Part shown: positions 45,001 through 48,000 of the stretch, piece after piece
Layout: the number at the start of each line of letters is the position of its first letter
Numbering within the stretch: position 1 is the stretch's first letter
Source: a virus
Lineage: Duplodnaviria; Heunggongvirae; Uroviricota; Caudoviricetes
Length of the DNA: 64,000 bases
Direction: 5' to 3' (one strand)
IMG/VR virus record: IMGVR_UViG_2939521961_000018
Program-made: the position numbers

Positions 45001-48000
45001 CATCGACCGGATCGCACCCGATGATACAGCACGTTTACGTGTAGGGGTCTAAACAGGTCATTGACGCTGTAAAGCTCCAGATTGTTAAAGAGCATTTTGC
45101 GGCGGGTTAAGTCGCGCCGTACGACTGATTTATGTAGCCCTGTGTAAGGGCGCGATGTTTCTGGCTTGGGTAAAATATAATAAGTGCAACTGATCATAGT
45201 CAATAGCGAGACTAATAATCTGGTTTAATTTTAATCTATGTGGTTGATTTTTAGATTAATTTATTTATGTAAAAAATATAAGCGAGGATAATGAAGATGG
45301 AGGATGCGTAAAGAAAAACCGGCGCGGGGGCCGGTTACTCTGTGTGAGATTTGGCGTGAGGGAAAAGCCCCCTGATAACACCAAGAAAAGCAGCGAACAG
45401 ATTCAGAGTTGAAGCAGCGGTCACCGCAATGAGCACTTCATCTGAAAAGATTTCTTTCCCCATGACGCGGCCTGTTGCAGACAACAACAAAACACTAGCC
45501 CACCAGTAAAGCCCATACTTGGCAACTTTATAGGCTTTTTCTGCAAATTTTTCTCTTAATTCCCTGTTAGATTTTGCATCTGCTGCGCGCTGGGCGTTTA
45601 AATTATCTCCATCTGATGAAGATTCTGTTGTTGGTGGCGTATCTTCAAGGCTTGATATATCTGTGCCTGGAAATGCTGCTCCGTTCGGGATTGTGATTTT
45701 TTCAAGTTCAGACATCAATGAATGTGGTTTGCCATATCAGTATGAAGAATTGGGCCACCATCAGGTTGACCTTTACTCCAGGCCGCGTTTGGTGCATGGG
45801 TCATGTTAGAAAGCTCGGTTCCGCTGTAGCTGCCGTATACCTCAACAATTCTGTCGATCAGCCTCCTGGTTTCTGTGTCACCCTTCTGTATTGTCGGTGT
45901 GATTCGTTTCCATTCCCCATCTGAATCAATGATGATGCTGATCATTTCCTGTATTTCATCGCCCCCATATTTCTTTAACATGTGGTACAGGTGCGGTATT
46001 ACAGGCCCGTAAGGCCAGCGCGCAAACAGATCGTCGAATAATGGCCTTCCGTTGAATAGTTTCAGATGCCACGACTGAGTATAGAACAACAATTTTTGTA
46101 GCTTCATCGGAGTTAAATCTTTGATTTCTCCCCGTTTAGCCTTATCAATAAAGGCGTTAGCTACGGCAGCAGCTGAATATGCCATGCTCTACTCCGCATT
46201 TTGCGAAATTAAATGTATCACCGGAGAGAATACAACAAAAAGCAAATTAGCAAAACTGATAGAGAAAGTCGGAAGCAAAAAAACCAAGAAGCGAACAGCA
46301 GTAACGAGTCAAATAGAACCCTGCGGGGTTGGTGGTTTTTGACAAAAACACTGCATGTAACTATAATTAGTTACAGTGTAGCGAAGATGAGATTATGTGG
46401 GCATGGGGAAAGCAGATAAGCTACTGGCAAAATTTTTAAACAGTAAAAAAACGTTTGAATGGGATGAGCTGGTCGTTTTGTTTTCCTCTCTGGGATATGT
46501 CAAAAAGGAAATGCAGGGGTCAAGAGTGCGGTTTTTCAATGCTGAAATCAACCACACCATATTAATGCATCGCCCTCATCCGGAAAGTTATGTCAAAGGT
46601 GGCACGTTGAAAGCGATTAAACAGAATCTGAAAGAGGCTGGGGTATTATGAAGCATCTAAAATATAAAGGATATTTAGGTACAGTTGAACCAGATTTTGA
46701 AAATAATATCCTCTATGGAAAGCTGGCATTTATTCGGGACTTGGTAACTTATGAGGCTTCTACGTTAGCTGAACTGGAAAAGGAGTTTAAAACATCAGTT
46801 GATCTGTATTTACAGTCTTGTGTGGAGGATGGAAAGGAACCTGATACCCCGTTTAAAGGCGTGTTTAACGTCCGGCTTGATCCCGAACTGCATCGTCGGG
46901 TAGCAGAAATGGCGATGGAAGAAGATTTATCACTGAACGCATTTGTTAATAAGGCGCTGGAAAAAGAAGTCAACCATCACACAGGGGCTTAATGTCACCT
47001 TCGTCTTTGACATCCTCACCGACATGAAGAACTGGTTTTACGGCACACCGGATAAAGGCCGCGAAAGCGGCCTTGTTTTTAGCGAATTCCACCACCGCCA
47101 GGACGAGAATCAGAAGAACGGCCACCACAACGAGAGCCGTCAGCAGCAGTATCATTGTCGTGCTGGCAATTACCCGCGAATGATTGAGTCGAAGCTACCA
47201 GTGACAACAAGACGAACAATGCAGCAAATGCTTTTTTCATGTAAGACACCTTATTTTAGGTTTTGGTAAGCTCAAATAATGCCCGAAAAGTGCATCCCTG
47301 CAAGGTTATTGATATCGCTCTGTGAGCTCAATCAAAAGTCTCATCATTCCACTGCGACTTTATGACTTTTCCGACAAACTGGCAGTTTTCGTTACACTCA
47401 ATCATGTCGAATCGTGGGTTGAGTGGCTCCAGGTACGCTTTACCGCTCTCACGAATGAATCGTTTGAAGGTGAATTCATCGCCGTTCATTCGGGCCACGC
47501 AAAAATCGCCATCCTCGATTTCCCGTTCAGGGTCAACGAGTATCAGCATCCCTTCAGGGAAACTGGGTTTACCACCCTGCGGCGCGGTCATTGAATGCCC
47601 CTTGACCTCCAGCCAGAACGACCTGTCACTGGCTTTTGTGGTGGTGGAGATCCACTTAATCGCATCCTTTGCGGTGTACGAAAAATCATCCATTGAGAAA
47701 GCTCCAGCCTGTACGCAGGAGAGTAACGGATATTCGTAATATTTCTCGAACAGGTTACGCCTGTTTCCCGGTGTGTGGGTACGAATACTGCGTAACAAAT
47801 CACTCAGATCTGGATTAATTTCTTCCGCAGGAACCTGTAATAAAGCCGCAAACTTAAGGGTATTTTCAGTATTTAACGCAATTTTTGCGTTCAATAACTG
47901 ACTAACAGCCCCCTGCGTTTTGAAGCCGAGGATATCTGCGGCTTTTTCCTGGCTTAGGGATAGCTGTTTCCGTTTTTCATCCCAGATTTTGCGCAGTCGT

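Follow-up and report, generated by a model that had tools for sequence, protein, structure and literature searches.

The question raised by this locus concerns the content of the interval that separates the stop codon of hicB from that of cI (46993-47327, in the coordinates of the window, i.e. the whole stretch of 64,000 nucleotides analysed, which belongs to the Caudoviricetes record IMGVR_UViG_2939521961_000018): how many genes does it contain, are they transcribed together with the repressor, and what might they do in the lysogen? The first-pass annotation, which named this entire interval, had proposed that it harbors two small hydrophobic ORFs belonging to a rex-equivalent lysogenic transcript. 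The repressor itself lies on the minus strand at 47328..48047 and can be assigned to the cI type, since it is recognized by Pfam (Peptidase_S24, E 1.7e-28; HTH_3, E 3.4e-07), matches phrog_4 (transcriptional repressor) and corresponds to the RefSeq entry WP_000162429.1, "LexA family protein". The prophage carrying this locus is Stx2a-converting and counts hicAB and a Panacea pair among its cargo. Overall, we consider it quite probable that a Sec-exported periplasmic peptide, borne by a gene-terminator cassette, is encoded after cI and that the second of the two proposed frames is spurious. Indeed, the comparative data given below indicate that the gap between cI and hicB contains one gene rather than two.

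The existence of a small, signal-peptide-like ORF opening at an ATG immediately 3' of cI and in its orientation is confirmed by a Shine-Dalgarno sequence, a full-length family match and a RefSeq entry. This gene of 53 codons (minus strand, 47079-47240), which is predicted to encode a small exported peptide, starts at position 47240, about 87-88 nt 3' of cI, begins with MKKAFAALFVLLSLVASTQSFAGNC and ends with the stop codon at 47079-47081. The longest ORF call begins at a GTG (47249) that lies within the Shine-Dalgarno sequence AAGGTG (47247-47252). The protein aligns with positions 1-53 of the 53 of the PHROG 14503 profile (E 1.4e-37, 128 bits) and also matches phrog_3117; moreover, RefSeq annotates exactly this ORF as WP_096858769.1, "transmembrane anchored protein". 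At least 1000 public contigs carry the identical protein, matches to it come from 52 clusters built at 90% identity, and it shares 98% identity with the family member P0001 and 75-92% with the other named ones. It ends where its homologues end, all of which stop at the same place or three codons earlier. These matches identify the ORF as a real and already annotated member of the PHROG 14503/phrog_3117 family; both the gene and the family can be regarded as known and named. A tblastn search against phage records returned no more than six partial matches, a low yield for which the low-complexity filter is probably responsible. Neither the whole protein nor its mature part retrieved any match in Pfam, NCBIfam or PADLOC, even at E values up to 1, and a profile search of the PDB sequences at E values up to 10 gave no match to the core domain. 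Searching the literature by family name and by core motif, we found no tested function for the family, and nothing relevant on the genes located downstream of cI in Stx lysogens.

The analysis of the substitution pattern suggests that the product of this frame is what is being maintained. In the part coding for the predicted mature peptide (GNCQHDNDTAADGSRCGGRSSDSRPGGGGIR, codons 23-53, 47082..47174, minus strand), all 27 third codon positions vary (27/27), as compared with eight first and seven second positions. The pN/pS ratio in frame 0 is 0.14 for this part and 0.32 for the signal peptide, whereas the two alternative frames give 3.0 and 2.2, which indicates that selection acts on frame 0 of the 53-codon gene. 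Eleven residues are invariant in the 35 sequences compared, all of them present here (C25, A32, G35, S36, R37, C38, G40, R41, R46, G48, and G49), and the protein carries the family core C-x(8)-A-x-DGSRCGGRS-x-DSRPGG with its two cysteines. The invariant C25 and C38 would fit a 14-residue disulfide loop; such a bond, suggested by this invariance, would close a single loop of the mature peptide.

What about the second frame? The 61-codon ORF (46970-47155, minus strand, +1 frame) does exist, as the first-pass annotation had stated, and its first 22 residues are very hydrophobic; its interpretation as the gene of a single-TM protein, on the other hand, does not withstand the comparison with the homologous loci and the database searches. 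The mean pairwise amino-acid identity is 42% in the +1 frame vs. 89% in frame 0, the pN/pS ratio of 3.0 reported above being that of this +1 frame. Among 5.8 billion proteins a single match was found, and it is identical; no match of note emerged from PHROGs, Pfam, NCBIfam, or PADLOC, tblastn against 50,697 phage records was empty, RefSeq leaves the frame unannotated, and reading the sequence upstream of 47155 revealed no Shine-Dalgarno sequence. In addition, the frame crosses the terminator hairpin at 47055-47074 and extends, in antisense, over the 3' terminus of hicB; its C-terminal half falls outside the boundary at which the homology between cassette copies ends. The hydrophobic character of the putative product is explained by the T-richness of the third codon positions of the 53-codon gene (T in 21 of the 31 codons of the mature region), which become second positions, and hence Leu, Val, Ile, or Phe codons, in the +1 frame. 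We therefore read the 61-codon frame as arising incidentally from the codon usage of the 53-codon gene and as most likely yielding no functional protein.

It might still be argued that each of the overlapping frames specifies a small hydrophobic protein, or that both belong to one gene which a frameshift has disrupted or recoded, the 61-residue product being a single-TM protein similar to type I toxins or exclusion proteins. Sixty-one open codons with a strongly hydrophobic beginning speak in favor of this idea, as do the call of the frame as a hypothetical protein, once, by one annotation pipeline and the fact that the +1 frame is open for 26 to 93 codons in the homologous loci too. However, the start and the end of the latter ORFs differ in every homologue, and the lack of conservation, of a ribosome binding site and of any family, as well as the overlap with the terminator and the position of the C-terminal half beyond the cassette boundary, make this scenario highly improbable. 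The suggestion that the two frames represent one frameshifted gene fares no better: frame 0 alone covers the whole PHROG 14503 profile and the homologues end at the same place or three codons earlier, so that nothing is missing for a frameshift to restore. Accordingly, we rejected a frameshifted or recoded single gene, no homologue having one continuous frame over both parts, and also a type I toxin or small TM protein, given that the sequence is unconserved and a translation start signal is absent.

As to the fate of the 53-residue product, codons 1-22 (47175..47240, minus strand) are predicted to encode a Sec-type signal peptide on the basis of hydropathy, of the -3/-1 rule and of the comparison of homologues; these calls, including that of the cleavage site, were made with simple rules and not with a trained predictor. 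The sequence is ordered as MKK, the hydrophobic stretch AFAALFVLLSLVA (mean hydropathy 2.7), and STQSFA, in which small residues occupy -3 and -1, so that the n-region, the h-region and the processing site of a Sec type I signal peptide can all be recognized. The signal-peptide character previously attributed to the frame opening at 47240 is thus borne out, S-F-A preceding G23 and the -3/-1 rule being kept in 33-34 of the 35 homologues: position -1 is occupied by A in 30 and by S in four of them, and position -3 by A, S or V in 33. Strong conservation begins at position +1, where G23 is shared by 34 of the 35 sequences; upstream of it, the signal-peptide sequence varies among homologues yet remains hydrophobic. 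It is most likely that the Sec pathway exports the product and that signal peptidase I cuts after ...QSFA, a cleavage that we infer from this pattern and that would set free in the periplasm a hydrophilic, Gly/Arg-rich peptide about 31 residues long. The identification of the product as a lipoprotein was considered and discarded: the lipobox [LVI][ASTVI][GAS]C is absent, the cysteine of SFAGNC coming two residues after the small-x-small site, an arrangement found in 34 of the 35 homologues.

A different outcome would be that the product is left uncleaved, its N-terminal helix acting as an inner-membrane signal anchor and the conserved C-terminal part remaining attached on the periplasmic side. 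The names given by RefSeq and PHROGs ("transmembrane anchored", "membrane associated protein") point in this direction, even though they are labels and not experiments, and AlphaFold models residues 2-23 as a single helix. Furthermore, some distant members continue past the core with a genuine TM helix and with a cytoplasmic domain, and a membrane-proximal placement therefore does occur in the family. Nevertheless, we regard the anchor as unlikely. The h-region spans no more than about 13 residues, the canonical small-x-small site is conserved (34 of the 35 homologues have A or S at -1), and the hydrophobic part changes more rapidly in evolution than the mature one; the latter difference (pN/pS 0.32 vs. 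0.14) is the pattern expected of a removable targeting signal. The AlphaFold2 model, built with the alignment of 35 sequences, contains the signal-peptide helix only (mean pLDDT 63, pTM 0.30) and assigns no confident fold to the mature part (pLDDT about 45-63). With a cleaved and released peptide as the preferred reading, the product would probably act in the lysogen's cell envelope.

Whether the gene is expressed in the lysogen depends on the transcript to which it belongs. The source of the lysogenic transcript is presumed to be a PRM-like site on the minus strand (TTGCTA-17-TAAAAT, 48058..48086) just upstream of the cI start codon, a match to the consensus in nine of 12 positions that is a pattern only, the promoter-scan matches in the region being no more numerous than in shuffled sequence. 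Between cI and the peptide gene there is a spacer of 87 nt (47241..47327, minus strand), in which the terminator scan detected no minus-strand terminator-like site and whose RNA fold is no more stable than that of shuffled sequences (z = -0.93); known RNA families were likewise not found within the gap between cI and hicB. Downstream of the peptide gene, instead, a GC-rich hairpin of 8 bp (AAGGCCGC-GAAA-GCGGCCTT, 47055..47074), with fold energies of -20 and -19.2 kcal/mol, appears to be a two-way intrinsic terminator, a reading based on the terminator scan, fold energy and conservation. Its tails are UUUAUCC on the minus strand, after the peptide gene, and GUUUUU on the plus strand, after hicAB; the sequence thus suggests that it terminates both, although the scan called the hairpin on the plus strand only, the minus-strand tail being short. 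The peptide gene lies on the same strand as cI, with a terminator after it and none between the two. Co-transcription with cI in lysogens is plausible: given the absence of a terminator between the two genes, the peptide gene is most likely transcribed on the repressor transcript, which the hairpin at 47055-47074 would end.

The possibility that the cassette is driven by a promoter of its own located in the spacer, or that it is silent, and hence that it is not part of the repressor transcript, seems to us rather unlikely, albeit worthy of consideration. Morons, by their published definition, bring their own promoter (PMC3594210), and a spacer of 87 nt is long for a tight operon. A promoter-like sequence can be recognized by eye in it (TTGCAG-16-CATTAT), as can another one in the relative 2015C-3121 (TTGGGA-16-TATTAT). 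However, the former is weak and both fall below the scan threshold, no terminator-like site follows cI, and in a Tolumonas prophage the corresponding gap is just 28 nt. The homology between cassettes begins at the ATG, which suggests that no promoter travels with the gene. We retain transcription from the repressor side as the preferred reading.

The comparison of the E. coli copies revealed that homology extends from the ATG through the end of the hairpin and is then lost, which suggests that the peptide gene and its intrinsic terminator form a small mobile cassette inserted at several cargo sites of enterobacterial prophages. In this locus, the cassette would fill a variable cargo slot after the cI gene of the Stx2a-converting prophage. 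Relatives sharing the 3' end of cI harbor other cargo or none in the slot, and in related Stx phages it is occupied by defence-type cargo, e.g., a restriction-modification system. All the other E. coli copies inspected lie in a different prophage slot or in a prophage remnant, including Uetakevirus-like tail-spike/BRO-N regions and a site after a lysis cassette; in other Enterobacterales, the gene is also found after Rz or Q. The order repressor, peptide, and terminator occurs in two lineages, i.e., the Stx2a-phage group and the Tolumonas prophage mentioned above, which is an independent instance and whose terminator differs from the one described here. The cI slot is not a fixed home of the peptide family, most copies of which lie away from repressors. 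About 9% of the complete E. coli genomes contain a related copy, and the core of the peptide is far more widespread, forming 483 clusters at 50% identity across Proteobacteria and Cyanobacteria. Outside prophages it occurs in Mesorhizobium lipoproteins, in cyanobacterial secreted proteins and in free-standing genes of Rhizobiales, and in the wider family its setting is extracytoplasmic, the core being preceded by a signal peptide, by a lipobox, or by a linker. SH3_3 or PG_binding_1/2 partner domains accompany it in about five of the 85 long members. Clustering 216 neighbouring ORFs from 37 loci outside Enterobacterales disclosed no shared neighbours, except among closely related Mesorhizobium strains. 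An 805-aa repeat protein (P0112) that had been retrieved as a candidate member looks like an unrelated Cys-rich repeat protein and was ignored.

The position of the gene recalls that of the lambda rexA-rexB pair, which likewise lies directly 3' of the repressor in the same orientation, with a terminator behind it but none in between. Rex is a two-protein abortive-infection system, with a cytoplasmic and an inner-membrane component. The resemblance is limited to this layout: searches of Pfam, PHROGs and PADLOC provided no RexA or RexB homology for the 53-residue protein, there being no sequence relation between the two systems, and what is predicted here is one exported peptide, about 31 residues long, and not a pair of genes for a sensor and a membrane channel. 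The cassette can also be compared with morons, extra DNA segments present in some related phages, which come with a promoter and terminator of their own and a distinct GC content and are expressed from the repressed prophage, as in the case of HK97 gp15 and of lambda bor and cor (PMC3594210). As in morons, the gene is present or absent among relatives, has its own terminator, occupies classical moron sites and encodes a predicted envelope-directed product. It departs from the definition in that no promoter seems to travel with it and in its GC content, which at 0.494 is not distinct from that of cI (0.465), of the whole window (0.478) and of the flanks (0.41-0.48). Unlike Bor, Cor, and Llp, moreover, the peptide has no lipobox and, unlike gp15 and SieA, no stable membrane helix is predicted to be left after cleavage.

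A remaining question concerns the function of the exported peptide. Our preferred guess, a tentative one and itself rather unlikely to prove right, is that it hampers the passage of an incoming phage through the periplasm or the cell wall. The model for this guess is Spackle (Sp) of T4, a small periplasmic exclusion protein bearing a signal peptide; the product of our gene is, by prediction, likewise a small, Sec-exported and soluble periplasmic phage product. Spackle is about three times larger than this peptide and is folded, and no sequence similarity between the two was detected. The PADLOC defence models did not match the 53-residue protein, and the presence of homologues outside prophages, in Alphaproteobacteria and Cyanobacteria with unconserved neighbours, together with the location of most copies away from repressors, argues against a phage-specific function.

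These same data give some room to the idea that the peptide acts on the envelope to the benefit of the host, as a factor of lysogenic conversion or of fitness, for instance by binding peptidoglycan or an envelope protein or by adding to stress or serum resistance, as in the case of lambda Bor. The spread of the core outside prophages, the nature of the rare partner domains, which are cell-wall binders, and the occurrence of the prophage copies at sites that morons commonly use (following Rz, following Q and beside the tail spike) are all in agreement with it. Direct counter-evidence did not emerge. On the other hand, those partner domains are found in just about five of the 85 long members, and the slot occupied in this phage lineage tends toward defence-type cargo (restriction-modification, hicAB, and the Panacea pair). 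We thus consider a host benefit as a serious possibility that falls well short of being probable. A bolder proposal is that the core of about 27 residues (C-x8-A-x-DGSRCG-x-R-[AS]-A-x2-RPGG) is an undescribed extracytoplasmic mini-domain that binds one particular envelope target (e.g., peptidoglycan or a cell-wall enzyme), its minimal, free-standing version having been captured by temperate phages as a lysogen-expressed periplasmic shield against superinfection; we put it forward as a speculation with a small chance of being correct. Like Excalibur (PF05901), this core is a short extracytoplasmic motif that is flanked by a pair of cysteines and closes with D-G-x-x-C. Membership in Excalibur was nevertheless rejected, there being no Pfam match at E values up to 1 and the acidic calcium-binding positions being unconserved in the wider family.

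The main yield of this work consists in a clean-up of the annotation, which would leave one real gene, one spurious frame and one shared two-way terminator in the interval. Genes of dormant prophages can alter the behaviour of their host, and the carrier prophage in this case holds Shiga toxin 2a. If the peptide blocks phages or alters the envelope, the finding would bear on the resistance of STEC lysogens to superinfection and would provide a function for a conserved domain that no database describes. If the core does act as a superinfection shield, it would represent a new and very small kind of superinfection-exclusion effector, carried by an Stx2a prophage.

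The E. coli JNEC-KY204 chromosome (NZ_AP045180.1), from a clinical isolate from Japan, is identical to the window (100%) over the 501 bases queried. The genes stx2A and stx2B (Stx2a; 54199-55439, +) are preceded by the Q antiterminator gene and three tRNA genes, which indicates that the window is part of a Shiga-toxin-converting prophage; an integrase adjoins a tRNA-Arg gene, and the region belongs to a Stx2a-converting lambdoid prophage. Promoter-like matches stand back to back between the cI-type repressor gene (47328-48047, -; HTH_3 and Peptidase_S24 domains) and a cro-like HTH gene (48153-48392, +). 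In the cII position, a 93-aa ORF (48415-48696, +; 48439-48696 with the later RefSeq start) has phrog_852 (unknown function, E 4.9e-42) as its PHROG match and none in Pfam. The interval considered here, 46993-47327, spans precisely the gap that separates the hicB stop (46992, +) from the cI stop (47328, -).

The first-pass annotation had placed two small ORFs in this gap; both exist and are correctly located, but only the one starting at ATG 47240 on the cI strand is a gene. This start, preceded at a spacing of 6 nt by AAGGTG (47247-47252), opens a 53-codon ORF ending at 47079, which matches the PHROG 14503 profile over 1-53/53 (E 1.4e-37; labelled “membrane associated protein”, moron category) and, as a second PHROG match, phrog_3117. 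Its exact coordinates are those of RefSeq WP_096858769.1 (“transmembrane anchored protein”), so that the gene is already annotated and belongs to a named, uncharacterised family. At least 1000 public contigs carry the identical 53-aa protein; it is matched by 52 clusters (90% identity) whose members come from Escherichia, Shigella, Klebsiella, Cronobacter, Pantoea, and Dickeya, and a related DNA copy is present in 473 of the 5426 complete E. coli genomes. Among ten colinear enterobacterial copies, variation in the part encoding the mature peptide (codons 23-53) touched every one of 27 third codon positions, 8 first positions, and 7 second positions; among thirteen copies, pN/pS in this reading frame (frame 0) was 0.14 in the mature part and 0.32 in the N-terminal part, versus 3.0 and 2.2 when computed in the two alternative frames. 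This is one conserved gene under purifying selection.

The overlapping +1-frame ORF, running from ATG 47155 to 46970 (-; 61 codons), had been read as a single-TM protein, a reading that we reject. Indeed, over the same bases of homologous loci the mean pairwise amino-acid identity is 42% in the +1 frame versus 89% in frame 0, and the +1 frame stays open for anything between 26 and 93 codons, its start and end differing among the loci. No Shine-Dalgarno sequence precedes it, and tblastn against 50,697 phage records returned no match; in the database search, its sole match over its length was one identical E. coli entry, two further matches covering at most one third of it. The frame crosses the terminator hairpin and then runs antisense to hicB, and its C-terminal half lies beyond the end of the homology between cassettes. 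The membrane-like look of this frame arises because the T-rich third positions of the real gene (T in 21/31 codons of the mature part) serve as its second positions, where a T specifies Leu, Val, Ile, Phe, or Met. Nor do the two ORFs represent one frameshifted gene, as had been proposed, since frame 0 covers the family profile fully and homologues stop at the same codon or three codons earlier.

Residues 1-22 of the 53-aa protein comprise MKK, a 13-residue hydrophobic stretch (mean hydropathy 2.7), and STQSFA. In 35 aligned homologues, position -1 is A/S in 34, position -3 is A/S/V in 33, and position +1 is G in 34, this glycine marking the onset of strong conservation. As judged from these residues, the N-terminus has the anatomy of a signal peptide cut by signal peptidase I; no lipobox was found in the protein. 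Export and cleavage are therefore likely, and the predicted mature peptide, GNCQHDNDTAADGSRCGGRSSDSRPGGGGIR, would be hydrophilic (mean hydropathy -1.3), with two invariant cysteines 13 residues apart that are likely to form a periplasmic disulfide. The database name implies instead that the hydrophobic segment stays as a membrane anchor, a possibility that we rate lower than cleavage. AlphaFold modelled only the signal-peptide helix, the rest having no confident fold.

An 8-bp GC-rich hairpin (47055-47074, both strands) follows the stop codon of the gene, with a T-run on the + strand and UUUAUCC on the - strand; on the + strand it would terminate hicAB. The similarity to other E. coli copies extends from the ATG to this hairpin, and therefore the mobile unit comprises ORF and terminator but no promoter. 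The scan called no terminator-like site in the 87-nt spacer between cI and the gene, and the spacer RNA shows no more structure than shuffled controls do. It is simplest to expect that transcripts from the repressor promoters continue into the gene, plausibly as in the case of rexAB in lambda. The gene may have a promoter of its own, given a weak promoter-like match in the spacer that was read by eye and falls under the scan threshold. The “rex-equivalent” label previously attached to this transcript is borne out by position, after cI with no intervening terminator called, and by nothing beyond it.

Immediately behind cI lies a slot that is a hot spot for cargo in this Stx-phage lineage, its contents changing with the strain. 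The window has the peptide cassette, hicAB, and a Panacea-domain pair there; next to the same cI 3' end, O104:H4 phage P13374 carries a restriction-modification system (methylase and restriction endonuclease), PhiR12_3 a BsuBI-type enzyme fragment, 2015C-3121 an SDH/Clp-fold serine protease, and another related Stx phage an unrelated 56-aa ORF. The genes hicA (46403-46651, +) and hicB (46648-46992, +), downstream of a perfect 12/12 sigma-70 consensus (TTGACA-17-TATAAT, 46339-46367), converge with the peptide gene (-) on one hairpin. A 4-nt overlap joins the Panacea (SocA-like) antitoxin-domain gene (45715-46185, -) to a 127-aa ORF (45335-45718, -; RefSeq start one codon later, 45715; phrog_33656, no Pfam match); the two look like a PanA-type toxin-antitoxin pair, for which PADLOC gave no match. 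Strong Rfam matches to C4 antisense RNA (RF01695, 78.8 bits; 44643-44730, -) and isrK (RF01394, 57.2 bits; 44755-44831, -) lie just upstream of a Rha-family regulator gene (about 43837-44610, -), which together resemble a P1/P7-style module for the antisense control of an antirepressor-type gene.

Placement of the gene next to cI is rare, being found in JNEC-KY204 and five other complete E. coli genomes; in all other E. coli copies and phage records inspected, the position is not after cI. Most of these copies belong to Uetakevirus-like prophages or phages, where the gene closes a short operon lying between the tail-spike gene and a gene for an 824-aa protein, often downstream of a BRO-N antirepressor; one E. 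coli copy follows a lysis cassette and a RelB/YafQ pair, and one lies in a prophage remnant. In other Enterobacterales the gene follows Rz or the Q antiterminator. A Tolumonas prophage provides an independent case of the repressor-peptide order: 28 nt separate its S24 repressor gene from the peptide gene downstream, and the terminator after the latter is also intrinsic but different.

A profile of the 35 sequences retrieved 483 clusters at 50% identity (Proteobacteria and Cyanobacteria), and a one-genome-per-species scan found the core, a motif of ~27 residues (C-x8-A-x-DGSRCG-x-R-[AS]-A-x2-RPGG), in Enterobacterales, Tolumonas, many Rhizobiales, Paraburkholderia, a Polyangiaceae MAG, and many Cyanobacteria. 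A signal peptide plus core is the commonest architecture; elsewhere the core is the C-terminal module of lipoproteins or Ser/Gly-rich secreted proteins, precedes a TM helix and a cytoplasmic domain, or occurs twice per protein. Pfam domains in a few of the 85 long members (SH3_3, SH3_4, PG_binding_1, PG_binding_2, and one T2SS-T3SS_pil_N) hint at an extracytoplasmic, cell-wall-adjacent setting. Outside closely related strains, core genes showed no conserved neighbours.

The exported peptide would plausibly act in the envelope. By analogy with T4 Spackle, it might hinder incoming phage in the periplasm, a guess that we consider rather improbable; a role in host fitness is about as likely. Pfam, NCBIfam, PADLOC, and PDB gave no match for the peptide or its core, and a literature search found no paper on the family. 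The finding is in itself an ordinary one, and its modest residual interest lies in a peptide core that databases do not describe and that is widespread.
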